From positions 13,125 to 77,124 of the forward strand of contig JBAXSP010000002.1 of the NCBI GenBank assembly GCA_037130655.1: a DNA stretch of 64,000 nucleotides. The letters are read 5' to 3'. This DNA comes from a bacterium. Its GTDB lineage: Bacteria; Patescibacteriota; Minisyncoccia; Phycocordibacterales; UBA9973. Below are positions 3,461 to 28,886 of the stretch, piece by piece. The notes under the pieces were generated by a model. That model was not told the origin of the DNA. It worked only from the letters and a program-made list of their open reading frames with translations, and did no database searches. Within the stretch, counting starts at the first letter, position 1. Each line of letters starts with the position of its first letter. The position numbers and the translations under genes are program-made.

Positions 3461-4876
3461 TTAAAAGTCCGACAAATCGTATTTGTTCGTAGCTGCTGGC
3501 CCTTGTGGAGCAGTAACGCCGGCATATTCATTGGCAACTTCAAGGAAGCTGGTAGTATTTCCATCAATCATCATAGACACTGCTCCAATCGGACCATTTC
3601 GGTGTTTTCCGATAATTACTTTGATTTCTCGAGAGCTATTGTTACCACCTGTTTCAAATTTGTCATCAACACGGTGCAAGAACATCACCACGTCAGCATC
3701 TTGCTCAATAGATCCAGAGTCACGAAGGTCAGAAAGCTTTGGTTCACCACCACGAGATTCAACGGCACGAGAAAGCTGTGACAATGCAATAACTGGCACA
3801 TCGAATTCTTTTGCAAGTGCTTTGAGTCCGCGAGAAATTTCGGTCACCTGGTTGACCATGTTGTCATAGGTTTTGACTGGAGTCATCAATTGCAAGTAGT
3901 CGATTACAATCAATCCGAGTCCGTGTTCTTTTTTGATACGTCGAGCAGTATTGCGAAGACGGATGATGTTACTTCCGGCTTGGTCATCGATGAAAATCGG
4001 CGCTTGTGCCAATTCTCCAACCGCTTGTTGCAACTTTTCATATTCTTCTTCTTTTTTAAAACCAATTCCAGTGCGAAGTTTCCACGCATCAACTTGTGAA
4101 TGAGAAGCGACCATTCTATCGATCAATTGATGAGAACTCATTTCGAGTGAGAAAATAATAGTCGGTTGACCGTGTTTGACCGCAGCATTTTTGGCAACAT
4201 CAAGTGCAAATGTTGTCTTACCGACAGATGGACGAGCGGCGAGAATAATCAAATCAGATTTTTGAAAACCAGAAAGCATGTCATCCAATTTTTTGAAACC
4301 ACTTGGTACTCCACGAAGTCCACCAGGATTTTGATGCAAACTTTCAAAACGTTCCATTGCTCCGGTCAACACTTCTTTGATTGGTACGGCACGAGTCGCG
4401 TTCGGACGCCCCTTCATATCAAGTAAGTGCTTTTCGGCTTGATCAACAATAGAATCTGCGTCTTCATCTGATTCTGCAAAACCAAGCTCGGCAATGTGAT
4501 CAGCTGCACGAATCAATTCACGAAGAATGTGTTTCTTCTGCACGATGTCTGCATAATATTTTGCATTCGTTGAAGAGGGAACAGAACTAGTCAATTCTGC
4601 CAAATAGGCATTTCCCCCAACACTATCAAACTGCTTTTTATCTTTGAGCTTCGTTGCAACAGAAAGCATGTCGATTGGTTCATTCTTCATCGACAAATCT
4701 CTCATTGCTTCAAAAATGATTCCATTTTTATCAGAATAAAATGTTTTCGGATCAAGAATGTCCGTAACTTCGTGAATTGCTCCAGAACGGACCATAATAG
4801 AACCGAGCACTGCGCGTTCTGCGTCAGCATCTTGTGGCGGTATTCGGATTTGCGGATTTCCTTTGTGTTGTGACAT
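3461..4876 (-). CDS. dnaB: replicative DNA helicase DnaB
   Basis: 471 aa; Walker A (ARPSVGKTTFALDVAKNAA), IIDYLQLM and the RecA-like C-terminal domain. No intein. Confidence 0.9.
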   Translation of the reverse strand: MSQHKGNPQIRIPPQDADAERAVLGSIMVRSGAIHEVTDILDPKTFYSDKNGIIFEAMRDLSMKNEPIDMLSVATKLKDKKQFDSVGGNAYLAELTSSVPSSTNAKYYADIVQKKHILRELIRAADHIAELGFAESDEDADSIVDQAEKHLLDMKGRPNATRAVPIKEVLTGAMERFESLHQNPGGLRGVPSGFKKLDDMLSGFQKSDLIILAARPSVGKTTFALDVAKNAAVKHGQPTIIFSLEMSSHQLIDRMVASHSQVDAWKLRTGIGFKKEEEYEKLQQAVGELAQAPIFIDDQAGSNIIRLRNTARRIKKEHGLGLIVIDYLQLMTPVKTYDNMVNQVTEISRGLKALAKEFDVPVIALSQLSRAVESRGGEPKLSDLRDSGSIEQDADVVMFLHRVDDKFETGGNNSSREIKVIIGKHRNGPIGAVSMMIDGNTTSFLEVANEYAGVTAPQGPAATNKYDLSDF

Positions 4877-4992
4877 CGTGAACTCATTGTAACAGTAGGA
4901 AAAGTAGCTGGGAAATCAGACCCCCCTGTGCACACTGTGAAAAACTCTTTTCACCTTTGTATTTTAAGCTTTGTTCAACTATAATGGGGGAT

Positions 4993-5968: not shown

Positions 5969-7774
5969 ATGGAAACAGAAAACAAAGCACAAAAAATTAC
6001 CATTAAAGACTTGTGGATGACTATAAAGAAAGTTTTACAACTTTCTTTTAAAGTTGACCGTAAAAGATTTTGGATTATCCTACTAACAAACATCTTTTTA
6101 GCAATATTTGCAACCATTTCTGCGTGGTATTTTTCTCGTTTCTTAAACATTGCAATATACAACAACGGAGAAAGATTTTTCAGCAACACCGTAATCTTTA
6201 CCTTACTGATTATAATTTCTGCAAGAATATTAAATTCGATACTGTCTACATGGAACTGGAGAGTCTATAGCTTTTTCTCAAGAAAATTTTTTACCGAAAC
6301 TTTCTTATTAAGTGCACAAGCATCAGAACGAATCGATATCCAAACATATGAAAGTCCTGGTTTTTCTCTATTACGCACAAGAGTTTCGATGTATTTCGGC
6401 AAACTACAAAACTACGGAGACGTTTTGACTGATTGTATTAATTCATTGATACCAATGCTTATTAGTACTGTCATTATTCTTTCTATTGGAAAATGGTGGC
6501 TATTACTCCTTGTTATTATTCCTGCCATCTTAAATTTCTGGACCGAATTACTTGATGGAAAAACAATGTGGGACTGTGAAAATCAAGCAGGCGAGGAACG
6601 TAAAAAATTCTCAGCTTTTTATAATTTCTTCGGATCAAAAAACTATGTTGAAGAAATTAAGATCAACGGACTAAAACCATTCTTTCTGAAAGGAATTATT
6701 GAAACACGAGAAACAATCAATGCTATTTTTCTAAAACGCGATAATGCGTACATGAAGAAAAAACTTATAGTAAATATTATTACAAACATAATGGAACTTG
6801 TTGTGCCTATCGTTCTTATTCATCAGATATTCACTAAACAATTATTGATCGGTGCTTTCTATTTCATCAATGGGCGCTTCGATACATTCACCAACAACTT
6901 ACGTCAAATGCTTCGCACACTCGGACGCATGTACAAAGACGCACCATATGTATCAGATATATTCAAATTCATTGAAATGCAACCGGTACTTCCAAACGGC
7001 AAAAGCACTCTTTCAACATTCGAATCACTGCAAATCAAAAATGTAGATTTTACGTATCCAGAATCTGACAGAGTGATCTTGGAAGGATTAAATTTTGAAA
7101 TCAAGCGTGGAGAAAAAGTCGCGATGATCGGTCTCAATGGAGCAGGGAAGACAACAATTACAAAATTACTGTTACGATTTTATTTTTCAACAAAAGGAGA
7201 CGTGTTGTACAATGGAAATAAAATCGAGGATTTAGACAAATACAATCTCTATCAAAAAATCGGATTCCTTCCGCAAGATTTCGCTAAATTTGATTTAACG
7301 TTCGAAGAAAGTATTGCCCTTGGAAACATGTCGAAGGATTTCAATAGCGACAAAGTGATTGAGTCTGCTAAAAAAGCTCACATTCATGAATTTATTATGT
7401 CCCATCCAAATGGTTACCAAACACAGATTGGTAAGAAATACAAAGATGGAGTAGAACTTTCTGGTGGACAGTGGCAAAAATTAGCTATTGCAAGTATGTT
7501 TTATCGTAATGCAGAATTCTGGATTCTCGATGAACCAACAAGTGCAATAGATGCAGAAGCTGAGGCAAACATTTTTGAAGAACTCGAAAAACTACCTGAT
7601 GATATTACAGTACTGATGATCTCACACCGATTCTCAACAGTTCGAAACGCAGATAGAATTATTGTTGTTGGAGAAGGAAAAGTACATGAGCAAGGTACAC
7701 ACGAAGAACTACTCAAACTCAAAAAAGGTGAGTATGCTCGATTGTTCAAATTACAAGCTGAAGGGTATAAATAA
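5969..7774 (+). CDS. ABC transporter, fused permease/ATP-binding protein (exporter type)
   Basis: N-terminal 6-TM domain, Walker A (GLNGAGKTT), signature (LSGGQWQKL) and Walker B (ILDEPTSAID). Confidence 0.85.
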   Translation: METENKAQKITIKDLWMTIKKVLQLSFKVDRKRFWIILLTNIFLAIFATISAWYFSRFLNIAIYNNGERFFSNTVIFTLLIIISARILNSILSTWNWRVYSFFSRKFFTETFLLSAQASERIDIQTYESPGFSLLRTRVSMYFGKLQNYGDVLTDCINSLIPMLISTVIILSIGKWWLLLLVIIPAILNFWTELLDGKTMWDCENQAGEERKKFSAFYNFFGSKNYVEEIKINGLKPFFLKGIIETRETINAIFLKRDNAYMKKKLIVNIITNIMELVVPIVLIHQIFTKQLLIGAFYFINGRFDTFTNNLRQMLRTLGRMYKDAPYVSDIFKFIEMQPVLPNGKSTLSTFESLQIKNVDFTYPESDRVILEGLNFEIKRGEKVAMIGLNGAGKTTITKLLLRFYFSTKGDVLYNGNKIEDLDKYNLYQKIGFLPQDFAKFDLTFEESIALGNMSKDFNSDKVIESAKKAHIHEFIMSHPNGYQTQIGKKYKDGVELSGGQWQKLAIASMFYRNAEFWILDEPTSAIDAEAEANIFEELEKLPDDITVLMISHRFSTVRNADRIIVVGEGKVHEQGTHEELLKLKKGEYARLFKLQAEGYK

Positions 7775-7775
7775 T

Positions 7776-7806
7776 AAAAAAGCCTCGCACTGCGAGGCTT
7801 TTTGTT
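7776..7806. terminator. bidirectional terminator (gcctcgcactgcgaggc hairpin)
   Basis: aaaaaagcctcgcactgcgaggcttttt between the convergent ABC gene and the 195-aa gene. The identical hairpin recurs at 8474-8505. Confidence 0.75.
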
Positions 7807-8393
7807 TAGAAGAACTCATCTTCACTAATACCCCAATCATGGATTCTATCAGTATTTAGAATAAATCCAGTACAAGACAAAACTTTTTCAGGAGGAACAT
7901 TATGTGTTGATAAGAAATCAAAAATATCTTTTTGCATTTTTTCTGATATCTCAAAAGTCAATAAATTAATTTCATTAAAGAATGCTTCTTTTTCGTTTTC
8001 ATCAAGTATTGGTTTTTTGTTACGATTACAAGGCATTACACCTTTAAAAAAGATATTTTCACCAATTGACAGTAATTCAGGAAAAACAAAGAGTGGTATG
8101 TTTGAAGTCTGAAATGCTCTTTTGTGAAAAAGCTTACCTTTTGAATCGACTAAACTTTCGACTATCTTGCTGTGTTTTTCAAAAGTAAAGTTTTGAGAAA
8201 GCCCACCCATGAAATGTTTTGAAATATCGATATTTAGCTTATAAAATGCAATCCAAAAATTTCTAATATCAATACTATTTACTGTTTCTTTTCTTTTAAA
8301 AGATAGAAACACTCCTTGCTCTTCAAACTCATAAGATTCCGGAAATTGAGACGCAATATCTTTCAGATGAATTTTTAATATTTCACTATCCAT
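7806..8393 (-). CDS. hypothetical protein, paralog 1 of a tandem family
   Basis: 195 aa, very AT-rich, with an acidic C-terminus (ISEDEFF). The segment GVFLSFKRKETVNSIDIRNFWIAFYKLNID aligns with the next gene, so the two look like paralogs. Confidence 0.55.
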   Translation of the reverse strand: MDSEILKIHLKDIASQFPESYEFEEQGVFLSFKRKETVNSIDIRNFWIAFYKLNIDISKHFMGGLSQNFTFEKHSKIVESLVDSKGKLFHKRAFQTSNIPLFVFPELLSIGENIFFKGVMPCNRNKKPILDENEKEAFFNEINLLTFEISEKMQKDIFDFLSTHNVPPEKVLSCTGFILNTDRIHDWGISEDEFF

Positions 8394-8473
8394 TTTTATA
8401 AAGAATATAAACCAAAAATATTTTATTACATAAAAGATGTTTTGTCAAATATATCATTTACAGAAAAACGTAA

Positions 8474-8505
8474 ATAAAAAAACCTCGCACTGCGAGGCTT
8501 TTTTG
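8474..8505 (-). terminator. terminator, duplicate of the 7776-7806 hairpin
   Basis: aaaaaaacctcgcactgcgaggctttttt immediately 3' of the 177-aa gene. Confidence 0.7.
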
Positions 8506-8510
8506 ATTCC

Positions 8511-9044
8511 TTAATAATCTTCTTCTGGTGTTTCGTCTTCGTGCATTCTTATTCTGTAAATATTTTTAAATTTTACAGAAAGCCAAATATCGAAATACTC
8601 GAAATTTGATTGATCGATACGCTTAAGTTGATCTAGCTCGTTGTTTACGATATTCATGTACTTATCAATCGGTGGAATTAGTTTGAAATTTTCTGAACAA
8701 AAATTAAACATATTTTCATAACTATGTGCATCAATCGGCAATACAAACATCAATTCATCTGAAGATTCTAAGGGAAGGCAAATAACATTTAGGGCAAAAC
8801 TTTTATTAATCCAAACAGTTAAATAAAAAGGGTCTTTATTTAAAGAAAAAATACAATTCCAAAATTCATACACAGACTCCTCAGTACTTTCTTTGTTTAG
8901 AAAGAGACTAAATCCATCTGAGTGTTGAACGAACCTATAAGAACCGCAGTTCTCCGCATAGATTCTAGTGATTATTGCTTCCATGTTTTCGTTTTTAAAT
9001 TCCGAAATTATTCTATTATATATAATGATATTTGTCAAATTCAT
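8511..9044 (-). CDS. hypothetical protein, paralog 2 of a tandem family
   Basis: 177 aa. DGFSLFLNKESTEESVYEFWNCIFSLNKD aligns with paralog 1. Acidic tail HEDETPEEDY. Confidence 0.55.
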   Translation of the reverse strand: MNLTNIIIYNRIISEFKNENMEAIITRIYAENCGSYRFVQHSDGFSLFLNKESTEESVYEFWNCIFSLNKDPFYLTVWINKSFALNVICLPLESSDELMFVLPIDAHSYENMFNFCSENFKLIPPIDKYMNIVNNELDQLKRIDQSNFEYFDIWLSVKFKNIYRIRMHEDETPEEDY

Positions 9045-9065
9045 TATTTAGAAACACTCACCTAG

Positions 9066-9096
9066 AAAAAGAAAAGCCCTGCAATGCAGGGCTTTG
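9066..9096 (-). terminator. rho-independent terminator
   Basis: agccctgcaatgcagggct hairpin followed by a T-tract, in minus orientation after the 169-aa gene. Confidence 0.65.
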
Positions 9097-9099
9097 GTC

Positions 9100-9609
9100 T
9101 TAGCAATCAAGAAAGGTAACTGTTTTGATATGTTTGACAGGGATAAGTAATTTTATCGGCAGAGAGTCAGGATCTACTGGTTTAAAATCAGCATTCTCAA
9201 TTTCGATACTGCAACTTTTACATTTCTCAAGCAATTCCTCAAAATTATCACCAGTAGGTAACGCAACTAAAGCAACAACATATTTCTTTTCAGAAATCAT
9301 ATTAAGTGGAGAATGTAGGTATACATTGGTAAAAGTAAAATACTCATTTGCAACTACCATAAAACGCTTTTTATTAGAAGATTCATTCATCTGCTCTACA
9401 ACAGCAAAACCTTTTGCAAGTGTTACAGAAACATTTGCTCTGTCATTATTACACAATGGCGGATCGAGTGCGATTTTTTCCCAAAAATCAATTTGATTTG
9501 ATGTTTCAAATCGGGGTTCGATTTCAACGGTAATTTGATTGTCGATTTCCTGTGTAACGTAACAATGCTCAGTCATACTGATTGCCGCTTTTAAAAGTAT
9601 AGGGTCCAT
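9100..9609 (-). CDS. hypothetical protein, possible third paralog
   Basis: 169 aa; ETSNQIDFWEKIAL weakly resembles the FW motif of the two downstream genes. TTGACA-N17-TATATA promoter upstream. Confidence 0.5.
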   Translation of the reverse strand: MDPILLKAAISMTEHCYVTQEIDNQITVEIEPRFETSNQIDFWEKIALDPPLCNNDRANVSVTLAKGFAVVEQMNESSNKKRFMVVANEYFTFTNVYLHSPLNMISEKKYVVALVALPTGDNFEELLEKCKSCSIEIENADFKPVDPDSLPIKLLIPVKHIKTVTFLDC

Positions 9610-9713
9610 ATTTTTTTGTTATTTATTCGAATTTACTATATATTAAATATATACACTTGTCAATATTTATTTAATTTAGAAAAATCAGTATTTTTTGGTA
9701 TAATCAAAAAATT

Positions 9714-11003
9714 ATGGAACGAACATATATCAAAGATATTGGTAATAAAAAAGGGGAGGAGGTTAGTATTTCGGGCTTTGTTCAGACACTTCGAGTGCAA
9801 AGTAAAATCATCTTCATGGTGGTTCGCGATATTACCGGTACAACTCAAGCAATTATTGAAATCTCAAATGAGACAACTTTTGATATTGCAAAAGAATTAT
9901 CACACGAATCAGTCGTCCGAGTGACAGGGCTTGTCAAAGACGGACCAAAAGACACATTTGAAATTGGAGTGAATAATCTCGAAGTACTTTCTGTAGCAAA
10001 CCCAGAACTTCCAATTCCAGTGGTTATCAAAGGGAGCGATGAAGAAACAGAGGCACCAACTCGTTTTGATTACCGATGGATTGATATTCGCAAACCAGAA
10101 AAAACACAAATTTTCAAAGTTTGGACTTCACTTGAAAAAGGATTCCGCAACTATTGGAATGACAACAACTATCTCCAAATCTATACACCGTCATTTATGT
10201 CGACACCAAGTGAAACTGGCGCAGAAGTGTTTGCGGTAGATTATTTTGATCGCAAAGCGTATCTCGCACAATCTCCACAATTCTACAAACAAATGGCACA
10301 GGCTTCAGGTCTTGAACGTGTCTTTATGGTTGGTCCAGTATTTCGTGCAGAAGAATCTTTCACCAGTCGTCACTTGACCGAATTTACTGGTTGGGACTTC
10401 GAACTTTCATATATCAATTCTCACCACGACATCATGGACCAAGAAGAAGGAATGATTGTTGCAGGATTTGAACAATTACAAAAAGATCTTCCGGATCTGA
10501 ACATTACGATTCCGTCTCGTCCATTTCCACGAATGCAGATTGTTGAAGTCAAAAAAATTCTTGCAACGCTCGGTGTGCCAAGTTCTGAAGACCACGATCT
10601 TTCTCCAGAAGAAGAACGAGCAATTTCTGACTACGTACAAAAAGAAATGAACCACGAATTTGTATTCATTACTGATTACCATGTTTCAAAAAGTGCGTTC
10701 TATCATATGCGACATGATGATGACAATACTCGTTCGAAGCGCGCAGACTTACTATTCCGTGGAATTGAAGTAACAACACTTGCTCAACGTGAACACCGTG
10801 TAGAAATCCTAGAGAAACAAGCGATTGAAAAAGGAATGAGTCTTGAACCACTCAAAGACTATATCAACTTCTTCCGTTACGGATGTCCTCCACACGGAGG
10901 AGCAGGAATTGGTCCAGGACGTTTGATTATGAAATTACTCGACCTACCAAACGTTCGCGAAGCAACATATCTCCCACGCGACGTAAAACGATTGAATCCA
11001 TAA
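9714..11003 (+). CDS. aspS: aspartyl-tRNA synthetase, archaeal/eukaryal-type class IIb (asparaginyl not excluded)
   Basis: 429 aa; OB-fold N-terminus, QSPQFYKQM, motif 2 FRAEESFTSRHLTEFTGWDFE and motif 3 GGAGIGPGRL. TGgTATAAT box 9 nt upstream. Confidence 0.8.
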   Translation: MERTYIKDIGNKKGEEVSISGFVQTLRVQSKIIFMVVRDITGTTQAIIEISNETTFDIAKELSHESVVRVTGLVKDGPKDTFEIGVNNLEVLSVANPELPIPVVIKGSDEETEAPTRFDYRWIDIRKPEKTQIFKVWTSLEKGFRNYWNDNNYLQIYTPSFMSTPSETGAEVFAVDYFDRKAYLAQSPQFYKQMAQASGLERVFMVGPVFRAEESFTSRHLTEFTGWDFELSYINSHHDIMDQEEGMIVAGFEQLQKDLPDLNITIPSRPFPRMQIVEVKKILATLGVPSSEDHDLSPEEERAISDYVQKEMNHEFVFITDYHVSKSAFYHMRHDDDNTRSKRADLLFRGIEVTTLAQREHRVEILEKQAIEKGMSLEPLKDYINFFRYGCPPHGGAGIGPGRLIMKLLDLPNVREATYLPRDVKRLNP

Positions 11004-11036
11004 AAAAATCCCGCATTGATTAGGTGCGGGATTTTA
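11003..11036. terminator. bidirectional terminator
   Basis: aaaaaaatcccgca-ttgattaggt-gcgggatttt. Confidence 0.6.
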
Positions 11037-11053
11037 TATGAACAAAGGAGCTA

Positions 11054-11233
11054 TTATGTCAGTTCTTTTTTTCTTTTATCTATTCGTTCAAAAATCTCAA
11101 AAACAAATTCGGCACTTAAACCTAACCCTTGGCCATCATCGTTGTTTTCCTCACTGAGCGATTCCGAAAGATTTTTTTCTAACTCTGTCAGTTCTTCCAT
11201 GTTCATTTCTTCTATGTCTTTGTTATTTTCCAT
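11054..11233 (-). CDS. small acidic protein (59 aa), not in ORF track
   Basis: Manual translation: MENNKDIEEMNMEELTELEKNLSESLSEENNDDGQGLGLSAEFVFEIFERIDKRKKELT. Codon usage looks genome-like, and it sits between a terminator and the scpA promoter. Confidence 0.3.
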   Translation of the reverse strand: MENNKDIEEMNMEELTELEKNLSESLSEENNDDGQGLGLSAEFVFEIFERIDKRKKELT

Positions 11234-11338
11234 TTATTATTTTATTTTAGGTTTAATAAATGATATCACATATAATATATATGTCAATATATCAAAACTA
11301 ACTTTCACATTGTGCCATAGTCACGGTATAATAACGAC

Positions 11339-26617: not shown

Positions 26618-28351
26618 ATGCAACACATTACCCACTTCCGCCAAGGTCTATTGTTGACCTTATTATTTGTATTTCTTTTCGGAAACGAAAAGATCTTAGC
26701 CCAACAAAAGCATTATCCACTCACCGTGGTTGATACTTTTGATTTGTACAAAAAGTACATCAAAAATGACTCTTTCGCCTCTTTTAGTGCTAATGCACTG
26801 ATAGAACAGAGTACGTATTCTCATTTAGTTTTTTATGGTAAAAACCGTGATTTATATTTTTATAAATACGGACCAACACTTACTACTATTGATTCAATAG
26901 CATTTGAATCACCAACCAATCAATCGACACAAAACACTTTTATTTCAAACAACACTGGTTGTATTGTAATGAATTACCGTGGTGTTTATCAGTATGCAAA
27001 GGATGGAAAAGTGACGTGGAAAATTGAAACGGTTGGTGAAAGTTTTTTTCAATCAATCGTACAAGTAACTAATGGGTACATTCTCTGTGGAGGTATTGTA
27101 CAAAATGATAGTTTGTTTAACACACTTTCTTTTATCAATATCGATGGAAGCATCAAATGGCAACGGAATTTTTATAGCTTGCAAAATAGCTATGTATCAA
27201 TTTGCCAGGCATTAGCATATTGCAATAAGCACATATACTTCATGTATGCTGATTCAAATCAAATACGTGCAGATATTAGTGGTAACGGATTAGTCCCTTC
27301 TGCCAAAGTTGTAAAAATTGATTTAGATGGAAACAGTATTACCGAAACAACAGTAGCTGTATCGCCGAGAAGTTTTGTTATCAAAAACAATCAGCCGTTT
27401 TTATTTGGAGATGTTGTTGATGGAACAGGTCAATCACTCTATCGAGTGTATAAAATCGACACCACAACACTTACTGCAACACTGTATTTCAACAATGCAA
27501 CAAATGGATTATTACCTTATGGTGATAAATGGCTTTCGGTCAGCAGTAAAAATGTTCGAAGTGCTGACAAATTGCACAAAGAATTTATTACTTCCATTAG
27601 TGTGTTTGATATCATCGACACAGAAAGCATCAAAACTTCGTATGTTCAGCATTACACCAATGTATTCGATACACTGACTCAAGTAAGTTCAGATATAAAC
27701 AATCTGCAACTAGATGGAGATAACAATATCTTACTTACTTTTACCGTGAATCGAAAGTTTACCAACGGATCAGGATTGTTGTTATACAAAATTGTTTTAA
27801 GAAAAGATACGTTGCCAAATGTTGACTCTCTTTGGGCAACACAAACAACGGTAGCAAAACAAGAAGTAACGATTAGTTGTCAAACACTATTCAAACGAAC
27901 ACTACTTGTTACTGTTTGGAAAAAAGACAATTCTTCAACAATCAAAACATATGTTGATACGAACATTGCAACCAATCATGCTATCAGAAGTTTTTTCTCA
28001 GAACCAGGTGAATATGTATATACTGCGTATGCTATAGGCGGTCCGTACAAAGACACGATTACTTCAAATGAACATTCATTCACTGTTGATGCAGGAACCA
28101 ACGGAATCACACAAACAAACAACGATCAATTGATCAGTGTGTTTCCGAATCCATCGAATGGTAGTGTTGTTTTTGAAATAACTATTCCAGGAAATCTGAC
28201 GGTGTACACACTGGAAGGCAAAATGGTTTTGAATAAAAATATTCAAACCACTACCCCATTGGATATTTCAGTATTCGGTACTGGCATGTATGTATATAAG
28301 TTCTCGACAGATAAAAGCACTCTGACTGGAAAAATCATTGTTCAGCAATAA
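26618..28351 (+). CDS. secreted repeat protein with T9SS-type C-terminal sorting domain (Por_Secre_tail-like)
   Basis: Signal peptide. The last ~70 aa, VFPNPSNGSVVFEITIPGNLTVYTLEGKMVLNKNI...ISVFGTGMYVYKFSTDK...GKIIVQQ, match the PNP...G-l-vyd..G+.v...GvY.v+ pattern of the TIGR04183 CTD. Confidence 0.6.
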   Translation: MQHITHFRQGLLLTLLFVFLFGNEKILAQQKHYPLTVVDTFDLYKKYIKNDSFASFSANALIEQSTYSHLVFYGKNRDLYFYKYGPTLTTIDSIAFESPTNQSTQNTFISNNTGCIVMNYRGVYQYAKDGKVTWKIETVGESFFQSIVQVTNGYILCGGIVQNDSLFNTLSFINIDGSIKWQRNFYSLQNSYVSICQALAYCNKHIYFMYADSNQIRADISGNGLVPSAKVVKIDLDGNSITETTVAVSPRSFVIKNNQPFLFGDVVDGTGQSLYRVYKIDTTTLTATLYFNNATNGLLPYGDKWLSVSSKNVRSADKLHKEFITSISVFDIIDTESIKTSYVQHYTNVFDTLTQVSSDINNLQLDGDNNILLTFTVNRKFTNGSGLLLYKIVLRKDTLPNVDSLWATQTTVAKQEVTISCQTLFKRTLLVTVWKKDNSSTIKTYVDTNIATNHAIRSFFSEPGEYVYTAYAIGGPYKDTITSNEHSFTVDAGTNGITQTNNDQLISVFPNPSNGSVVFEITIPGNLTVYTLEGKMVLNKNIQTTTPLDISVFGTGMYVYKFSTDKSTLTGKIIVQQ

Positions 28352-28453
28352 TTTTTCCAACATCCAGTCACAAAGCCTCGTATAATGCGAGGCTTTTTTC
28401 TATGGTAATAAAATATGATACAAAACGTCTTATTTATGGAAGGAATAATATAT

Positions 28454-28481
28454 TGACATTATATTAATAATATGATATAAT
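28454..28481 (+). promoter_or_regulatory. sigma70-type promoter: TTGACA, 17-nt spacer, TGaTATAAT
   Basis: tatTTGACAttatattaataatatgaTATAATaca. A rare full -35/-10 pair here; it drives the conserved leader. Confidence 0.65.
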
Positions 28482-28488
28482 ACAATTA

Positions 28489-28556
28489 GTAAAGTTCTTT
28501 GATTTAGTTAGGTGTACAGAGCGGATCTTGGTCCTTTGTGTCCACCTAATTAAATA
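28489..28556 (+). ncRNA. conserved 5' leader element, copy 1 (candidate cis-regulatory RNA)
   Basis: agttctttgatttagttaggtgtacagagcggatcttggtcctttgtgtccacctaatt, about 80% identical to the leader at 33293-33385 (minus). Outer stem aggtg/cacct versus atgtg/cacat shows a compensatory change. Confidence 0.5.
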
Positions 28557-28559
28557 CAA

Positions 28560-28886
28560 ATGAAAAAAATATATTCAATCCTTATCTGTCTTGTTGCTTT
28601 GTCGAGTCAATCTTGTAAAAAAGAAATTTCTCAAAGCTATAAAGATAGTTTACCGAAAATAATATCTATAGAAAAACCTGAAGGACATTTTACTTATAGA
28701 TATAAGATGAAAGGTCAAGATACAAATTCGAAAGATCCTAAAACAGGAACTGTCTATAGAAGTTACGGAATTGCATTAGTTTTTTCCAACAATGTTTACA
28801 AAGTTGGAAGAATTATATCTGACGAACCCCTGGATCGATCAGATAGTACCAGCGTTATCGACTTTGTAACAGAAGTTGATAAATAA
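28560..28886 (+). CDS. lipoprotein, hypothetical
   Basis: MKKIYSILICLVALSSQSC lipobox; 108 aa. Confidence 0.6.
   Translation: MKKIYSILICLVALSSQSCKKEISQSYKDSLPKIISIEKPEGHFTYRYKMKGQDTNSKDPKTGTVYRSYGIALVFSNNVYKVGRIISDEPLDRSDSTSVIDFVTEVDK

Follow-up and report, generated by a model that had tools for sequence, protein, structure and literature searches.

The junction between trpS and aspS in a 64,000-nucleotide stretch of Patescibacterial DNA (contig JBAXSP010000002.1 of GenBank assembly GCA_037130655.1, positions 13,125 to 77,124 of the forward strand; the whole stretch is termed the window) holds three small minus-strand genes, A, B and C, between an ATP-binding cassette (ABC) exporter gene, ABCx, and aspS. 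Comparison of this slot with its counterparts in relatives shows what is, to judge from sequence, a replacement-type hypervariable islet of lineage-restricted, expression-ready ORFan modules. In the lineage concerned (Patescibacteria, Paceibacteria/Nomurabacteria-like), each module would consist of a promoter, a short leader, one open reading frame (ORF) and a GC-rich hairpin; the ORFs are predicted to encode soluble acidic proteins of 157-195 amino acids (aa), and mosaic ABC exporters lie alongside. The explanation that we favour for the locus as a whole, which joins to such an islet recombination at its flanks, conflict-type selection and a neutralising function of its products, has in our estimation a probability of about 35%.

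The variability of the slot is apparent from four full and three partial haplotypes, all of them from metagenome assemblies. The same trpS-aspS slot was recognized in the window and in contigs L001, L003, L089 and L170. The window carries C-B-A with ABCx, L001 carries C'-D with ABCx and ABCy, L003 carries A'-B' with ABCz and ABCy', and L089 carries A''-D with ABCy; the partial contigs L005, L006 and L008 add C''-B'' and a B''' beside ABCw. These are close relatives, in which the AspRS, TrpRS and ScpA proteins are 96-97% identical and the identity of the flanking DNA is 88% to that of the window and 94-97% from one relative to another. AspRS, by which the window is assigned to this Patescibacterial lineage, is at most 77% identical in the closest GTDB species representatives, and no homologue of A, B, C or D was found in relatives with AspRS 66-77% identical, including L009-L026. 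Hence the suggestion, made when the sequence was first read alone and without database searches (the sequence-only reading), that these are accessory cassettes is borne out by synteny, their content and order varying among close relatives, and the small genes are best regarded as accessory cassettes and not as housekeeping genes, a view that the comparison supports. In many distant relatives trpS directly abuts aspS, and in some the two are separated by an ABC exporter or by unrelated genes. The cargo upstream of aspS in distant relatives includes a SAM-methyltransferase-like ORF and a 511-aa ORF in L024 (7422-9599), as well as small ORFans in L009 (9419-9694) and L090 (499-924); such unrelated contents suggest that the trpS-aspS junction is a recurrent insertion site across the wider clade.

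Alleles within the slot differ in age from the genes around it. The A genes of L003 and L089 have a saturated synonymous divergence (dS) of 1.75, against 0.048 for aspS on the same two contigs (dS and its nonsynonymous counterpart, dN, are Nei-Gojobori estimates). The D genes of L001 and L089 differ at 1 of 471 nucleotides (nt), that is, they are 99.8% identical in DNA, in flanks (aspS and the upstream spacer) that are about 4% different. Taken together, the dS mismatch of A and the near-identity of D point to old allele lineages exchanged among strains and not to rapid divergence in place, and the two D copies show the apparent recent movement of at least one module between strains. Within the cassette families dN/dS is 0.14-0.44, compared with about 0.03 for aspS, trpS and ABCx, which indicates that the cassettes are, on this measure, real protein-coding genes under purifying selection with weaker constraint than their flanks. 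The genes had initially been taken to be fast-diverging; with a saturated dS in A against a flank dS of 0.05, and with purifying selection, exchange of old alleles describes them better.

Some of these observations would also be expected if the genes were ordinary lineage-specific ORFans (small regulators or chaperones, for instance) or weakly selected passengers, and the slot a permissive hot spot for recombination. Their dN/dS exceeds that of the flanking genes 5-14-fold, and single-gene, opposite-strand, low-GC inserts also differ between the window and L089 at the gltX/murG, murG/ftsW and aspS/scpA junctions, which, being unrelated to the slot, suggest a general mode of genome flux. Against this, dN/dS is clearly below 1 in all families, the promoters and terminators are strong and conserved, and the maintenance of deep allele families together with one recent transfer exceeds what neutral drift predicts for a reduced genome; we regard this alternative as rather unlikely. 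Under the favoured explanation the variety would be kept by frequency-dependent, conflict-type selection.

Between B (L003) and D (L001, L089) the promoter and leader, from -35 box to ATG, are 95% identical over a 60-nt blastn match and the terminator hairpin is the same, so that only the coding sequence differs; this promoter and leader are common to the B and D modules and partly to the C modules. On the aspS side the spacer is kept as far as the -35 box (ATTGACAA) in front of C and A modules alike. On the ABC side, ABCx, ABCy and ABCy' have in common the hairpin and their 12 terminal codons (ARLFKLQAEGYK), and four or five exporter types end in the same 12 residues. The alignments thus show that the apparent junctions sit at conserved non-coding elements and at the conserved ABC 3' end. 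Since breakpoints at -35 boxes and terminator hairpins also occur inside the islet, single modules would be swappable besides the whole islet. No recombinase was found within about 7 kb on either side of the slot in the window, L001 and L089, and exchange, as we infer from the breakpoints, might proceed by homologous recombination at the short conserved flanks with no dedicated recombinase, the conserved non-coding elements being the obvious substrates for swapping one module or the entire block.

The modules appear to be equipped for independent transcription. Upstream of each of genes A, B and C is a sigma-70-like site in which TTGACA is perfect and the spacer measures 17 nt, the -35 elements starting at 8448, 9038 and 9663. 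Across the 64 kb of the window, agreement with the promoter consensus reaches 11 or 12 of the 12 positions at only nine sites, four of which are predicted to drive C, B, A and a further small gene at 11054-11233. Each of the three genes ends in a GC-rich hairpin followed by a T-run, in agreement with the sequence-only reading, which had assigned every gene its own terminator (Table 1). Two of these terminators had been called identical. They share the 16-nt sequence GCCTCGCAGTGCGAGG, at 7783-7798 (A) and 8483-8498 (B), and differ at the 17th base, C against T, so that they are near-identical and not identical; dinucleotide shuffles of the window yielded no repeat like it. The B terminator nearly duplicates that of A and ABCx, so that a direct repeat of about 20 nt flanks the A module. 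Being palindromic, the A terminator could also serve the convergent ABCx, and an A-type hairpin also lies 3' of D, beside the ABC gene, in L001 and L089. Just downstream of the -10 element, the B, D and C modules (C in L001 and L006) share the leader motif AATTTCGGA(T/A) with a module for an alpha-C-terminal-domain-like (alpha-CTD-like) protein described below. AATTTCGGA is not general in the window, with 15 near-matches where 31 are expected by chance, and it may be a regulatory or leader element that the accessory modules have in common.

The composition of the small genes sets them apart from their surroundings. GC content is 0.306 over 7806-9609, compared with 0.375 for the whole window and about 0.40-0.42 in aspS and trpS; it is 0.32 over 5969-9713, with 0.29-0.345 for the individual small genes and 0.32-0.35 for ABCx. 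The AT-richness first noticed is therefore genuine, as is the position of the block between the ABC exporter and aspS. The three ORFs, first given as 195, 177 and 169 aa, are also present at these lengths, and it is the length of the middle product that requires revision. The B ORF is open upstream to 9044 (8511-9044, 177 aa), and its own promoter lies inside the first 20 codons of this longer frame; in its orthologues, which are 156 aa, the upstream extension is closed, and the NCBI record is of 157 aa. On these grounds the start is placed at the ATG at 8984, and the product is most likely of 157 and not 177 aa. No 19-residue window in the small proteins exceeds 1.6 on the Kyte-Doolittle scale, and they are therefore predicted to be soluble and to lack a signal peptide or transmembrane segment. 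A 123-aa antisense ORF lies within gene C (window 9125-9496, plus strand), and each of the three C alleles keeps this frame open over 118-130 codons. Since promoter, terminator and full-length ORF all belong to the minus strand, the antisense ORF is probably a shadow frame.

Whether the families are related to one another bears on how the array arose, for the genes had been read as three tandem paralogs with a resemblance to SUKH/SMI1-type immunity proteins, which would imply local duplication followed by rapid divergence. Pairwise BLASTP is non-significant (A/B, E=0.34; A/C, 0.70; B/C, 0.82). Profile-profile comparison with hhalign aligns the A family with the B/D family at E=0.022 over 46 N-terminal columns, and C with neither (about 0.35 in both cases); column-shuffled controls reached the observed score in 4 of 200 trials for A against B/D, 134 of 200 for A against C and 104 of 200 for B/D against C. 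In global mode, full-length homology of A and B is unsupported. Hence A and B may share an N-terminal element (p about 0.02), and the alignment of the 195- and 177-aa products proposed earlier survives marginally, over 46 N-terminal residues, and not at full length. C is not demonstrably related, in its sequence, to A or B by any test run, and paralogy of the three genes is not established. D is a 157-aa protein, 21% identical to B yet with a significant relationship to it (phmmer E=1.7e-4 in a database of 2,958 ORFs), and both keep an acidic tail ending in F or Y. Acidic tails are indeed present in A and B, as had been noted, and the FW dipeptide remarked upon in the 169-aa protein occurs near residue 42-47 in all three proteins; the C-termini are family-specific (...WGIS-DEF(F/L), ...EE-x-EDY/F and ...TFLDC). 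A tandem SUKH array could claim the weak A-B/D alignment and the superficially SUKH-like FPESYEF...G motif. Under permissive thresholds too, however, the SUKH, SMI1_KNR4 and Imm families of Pfam gave no match to any of the proteins, C shows no relationship to A or B, the sYxF segment is predicted to be beta-strand (in low-confidence models), and order and content differ between strains in a manner that fits whole-module exchange rather than duplication in place. An origin as SUKH/SMI1-type paralogs consequently seems most improbable.

By every search performed, the A, B/D and C families are apparently lineage-restricted ORFans, with no homologues outside a narrow clade. An exhaustive HMMER search of 1.84 billion representatives, run for family A alone, returned as relatives only P0009 (46% identity) and P0010 (36% identity); B and C were covered by a word-indexed search of 5.8 billion clusters, which gave three relatives of B and two of C. 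Family hidden Markov models run against 9,122 ORFs from 170 loci recovered known members only, a scan of IMG/VR with three family alignments found no relatives, and a scan of JGI metagenomes with AspRS, in which the closest match reached 79% identity at most, added no haplotypes. Searches with hmmscan against Pfam-A (E up to 10 for A, B and C, up to 0.1 for D, P0010 and P0008) gave no SUKH, SMI1_KNR4 or Imm match; no PADLOC-DB model matched A, B or C at any E up to 10; and scans of family members against Pfam, PADLOC, PHROGs and NCBIfam matched no family. Profiles of the three families found nothing below E=0.27 among PDB sequences. AlphaFold2 models, made from shallow alignments, are of low confidence (predicted local distance difference test, pLDDT, 41.7 for the B family from four sequences and 45.1 for the A family from three), and the best Foldseek matches of these models to the PDB (E 0.44 and 1.2) amount to noise at such confidence. 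Two candidate assignments were discarded. A weakly matching ORF in L024, located in the corresponding gap, proved to be the SAM-methyltransferase-like protein, and a PD-(D/E)xK nuclease motif in A (PEL...DENEK) was rejected because its spacing misfits (D/E)xK and the segment is predicted to be helical.

The same searches bear on the idea that the modules are conflict genes of phages or mobile elements, either single-gene anti-phage defences or acidic DNA-mimic proteins acting against restriction or other defences. It would suit small, acidic proteins (pI 4.2-5.5) encoded by low-GC, strain-variable genes with predicted independent transcription, and the lineage has other variable single-gene inserts, including an ORF resembling the RNA polymerase alpha-CTD. 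PADLOC and PHROGs returned nothing below E=0.009, however, IMG/VR held no relatives, no integrase or mobile-element gene was found in the flanks, and the slot is fixed between core genes and not at a tRNA or att-like site; we consider an origin of this kind quite improbable.

The exporters are variable in their own right. They are present or absent according to strain (relatives carry x+y, y only, z+y' or w), and they are mosaic: between ABCy (L001) and ABCy' (L003) identity is 95% for the ATPase half and drops to 40% for the transmembrane half, and ABCx, ABCz and ABCw are 11-21% identical to the transmembrane half of ABCy/y'. Together with the swapped cassettes this means that the islet varies both in the substrate-facing domain of the exporter and in the small proteins. 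ABCx matches Pfam ABC_tran at 2e-26, and the exporters lack a C39 peptidase or C39-like domain. The small proteins might be supposed to be effector cargo of the adjacent exporters, directed at hosts or at competitors, their C-terminal tails acting as uncleaved secretion signals. Hypervariability located exactly in the transmembrane half of the exporters would be in keeping with this, as would the absence of N-terminal signals from proteins that keep family-specific C-termini and the NCBIfam matches of ABCx to type I secretion, bacteriocin-exporter and MsbA/HlyB-like models, all far below their cut-offs. Yet the small genes run towards the ABC genes in convergent orientation, with promoters and terminators of their own; exporter type and small-protein family show no one-to-one covariation, D adjoining ABCx or ABCy and B adjoining ABCz or ABCw, with A separating B from ABCx in the window; some distant relatives have trpS and an ABC gene without such small genes; and the missing C39 domain speaks in the same direction. 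Export of the small proteins is, in sum, decidedly unlikely. A bacteriocin locus was also considered as a primary model and set aside, there being no room for precursor peptides and no C39 domain in the exporters, and the small proteins being soluble and of 157-195 aa.

Table 1. Coordinates of genes, predicted signals and related features in the window and in homologous contigs.
Feature	Contig	Position	Strand	Description
Gene A	window	7806-8393	minus	195 aa, pI 5.4, predicted soluble; family of three members worldwide
Gene B	window	8511-8984	minus	most likely 157 aa, from ATG at 8984; pI 4.5; tail ...EDETPEEDY
Gene C	window	9100-9609	minus	169 aa, pI 4.8; C-terminus ...TFLDC
ABCx	window	5969-7774	plus	ABC exporter, 601 aa, fused transmembrane and ATPase domains; convergent to gene A
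aspS	window	9714-11003	plus	flank of the small-gene block opposite ABCx
Promoter-like site of A	window	8420-8448	minus	TTGACA-17-TAAAAT; kept with the A alleles of L003 and L089
Promoter-like site of B	window	9010-9038	minus	TTGACA-17-TAGAAT, followed by leader AATAATTTCGGAA
Promoter-like site of C	window	9635-9663	minus	TTGACA-17-TATAGT
Predicted terminator of A	window	7777-7803	minus	12-bp stem with 6 GC pairs, T-run
Predicted terminator of B	window	8476-8504	minus	hairpin and T-run, near-duplicate of the A/ABC terminator
Predicted terminator of C	window	9073-9095	minus	hairpin GCCCTGCAttGCAGGGC and T-run; kept after C in L001, L006 and L008
Fourth module	window	11008-11287	minus	between aspS and scpA
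Fourth module, promoter-like site	window	11287-11260	minus	TTGACA-16-TATCAT with extended TG
Fourth module, ORF	window	11054-11233	minus	59 aa, very acidic, pI 4.2
Fourth module, hairpin	window	11008-11032	minus	
Exporter genes	L001	2400-6009		
Exporter genes	L003	2716-6439		
Exporter gene	L005	619-2421		
Exporter gene	L089	11201-13003		
Leader motif AATTTCGGA(T/A)	window	9000-9038		
Leader motif AATTTCGGA(T/A)	L001	1835-1894		
Leader motif AATTTCGGA(T/A)	L003	2117-2176		
Leader motif AATTTCGGA(T/A)	L006	upstream of 402		
Leader motif AATTTCGGA(T/A)	L089	upstream of 4272		

Several other insertions were observed outside the slot. The fourth module, an insert of about 320 bp, is absent in L089, where aspS and scpA are 88 bp apart. 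L089 has in turn two opposite-strand inserts of its own with a GC content of 0.31 (2442-2987 and 4272-4985), and the homologous junctions in the window (16112/16113 and 14960/14989) are empty. One, between gltX and murG, is a 181-aa ORFan; the other, between murG and ftsW, encodes 237 aa with a C-terminus that matches NCBIfam rpoA alpha-CTD models (E about 1e-10), and its TTGACA...TTTCGGATAAAT promoter and leader are in the style of the C module. Elsewhere in the window (26618-28351, plus strand) a secreted-looking protein of 577 aa carries a Por_Secre_tail domain (C-terminal sorting by the type IX secretion system; E=1.7e-8), an unexpected find for a Patescibacterium. This gene is followed at 28453 by a promoter that agrees with the consensus at 12 of 12 positions (region 28453-28886, plus strand), and 3' of it lies a lipoprotein-like ORF of 108 aa (28560-28886).

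As to function, a tentative proposal is that the proteins are constitutive cytoplasmic binders that would neutralise incoming toxins or effectors of host bacteria or competitors, in an immunity-like or counter-defence role; it is a guess, which we think less likely than not to be right. The proposal fits the size and charge of the proteins, their constitutive-looking independent expression, their variability, the tail shared by B and D and the evidence that hosts attack their epibionts. The B and D proteins have kept a single feature in common, the acidic C-terminal tail with its final aromatic residue, which is therefore probably part of an interaction surface. Saccharibacteria, which form another class of Patescibacteria, are restricted by their Actinomycetota hosts by means of an Esx-secreted effector, and counter-measures on the part of the epibionts are expected by the authors of that study (PMC13622651).

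Several considerations weigh against this explanation of the locus. Nothing from Pfam, NCBIfam, PADLOC, PHROGs or PDB profiles links the proteins to any function, and the predicted structures are too low in confidence to support one. As the haplotypes come solely from metagenomes, any single contig could be a chimeric assembly of co-existing strains, and recombination at the flanks was deduced from breakpoints rather than observed. Remote relatives of B/D and C, which were sought by the word-indexed search, may have been missed. No toxin, secretion-system or recombinase gene was present among 20 ORFs of at least 290 aa beyond 17.8 kb, a scan that left out smaller ORFs and the rest of the genome and in which the ORFs had housekeeping-type Pfam domains, nor among genes near the slot according to precomputed Pfam hits on homologous contigs; the neighbours of the slot are trpS, the ABC exporter, aspS, scpA/B, mraY, ftsW and murG. 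Finally, known orphan-immunity arrays hold recognisable immunity families and are usually linked to mobile elements or recombinases (bioRxiv 10.1101/471110).

A bolder form of the favoured explanation would be that Patescibacteria, as obligate epibionts with tiny genomes, possess a recombinase-free 'plug-in' locus, whose modules, for acidic cytoplasmic proteins of families not seen before, are traded at -35 boxes and terminators and which, with its mosaic exporters, provides a strain-specific counter-defence or immunity repertoire against the effectors of hosts or rival epibionts. In this specific form we judge it unlikely; were it correct, the locus would represent the epibiont side of an arms race that has been shown from the side of the host (PMC13622651). 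If the modules do serve immunity or counter-defence, they would be the first candidates for an epibiont answer to host-delivered effectors and would add three or four new protein families; if not, the locus would still be a useful marker of strain identity and recombination in the lineage. Much of bacterial diversity belongs to the Patescibacteria, in which the majority of the genes that vary between strains lack annotation. The trpS-aspS slot offers a clean, small example of how reduced genomes may keep a flexible gene pool, as expression-ready modules swapped between essential genes.

Among known systems, the orphan immunity gene arrays of Bacteroidales, namely the acquired interbacterial defence clusters (AID) and the recombinase-associated rAID-1, which hold up to 31 genes (Ross et al., bioRxiv 10.1101/471110, later Nature 2019), resemble the slot in having co-directional small genes of low GC content, repeated intergenic sequences, strain-variable content and no adjacent toxin gene. 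By the measures used for rAID-1, the slot has three co-directional genes with a GC content of 0.29-0.345 and repetitive intergenic sequences, these being the terminator hairpin and the promoter with its leader. It differs in lacking a XerD-like recombinase (none within about 7 kb) or a mobile-element context, in the absence of homology to known immunity families, in having two or three genes per array, each with its own predicted promoter and terminator, and in belonging to a Patescibacterium, with no known exposure to the type VI secretion system. Proteins of the SUKH/SMI1-KNR4 superfamily (Zhang et al. 2012, PMC3482391) are likewise of about 150-200 aa, cytoplasmic, acidic and often in tandem arrays, and family A has the loose N-terminal 'P-x-x-Y-x-F ... 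G' motif. Unlike them, the slot proteins have no Pfam match, and no linked toxin was found among the genes scanned.

In common with integron cassettes, the slot consists of one-gene units with hairpin-forming repeats, of variable order and content, at a fixed site. However, no integrase or attI site is present, the hairpins are intrinsic terminators of the ordinary kind, followed by T-runs, and each module carries a near-consensus promoter of its own, which integron cassettes normally lack. The closest parallel lies with replacement-type flexible islands, of which the classic cases are the capsule (cps) and O-antigen loci between conserved core genes and the hypervariable regions of streamlined marine bacteria. 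Like these, the slot is a fixed site between core genes with diverged or non-homologous contents, alleles older than the flanks, atypical GC content and exchange that can be attributed to flanking homology; unlike these, its cargo comprises independent one-gene modules for soluble ORFan proteins and not a biosynthetic pathway. The trpS-aspS locus thus adds a further case, from a phylum that has been little studied, to a type of flexible islet already known.

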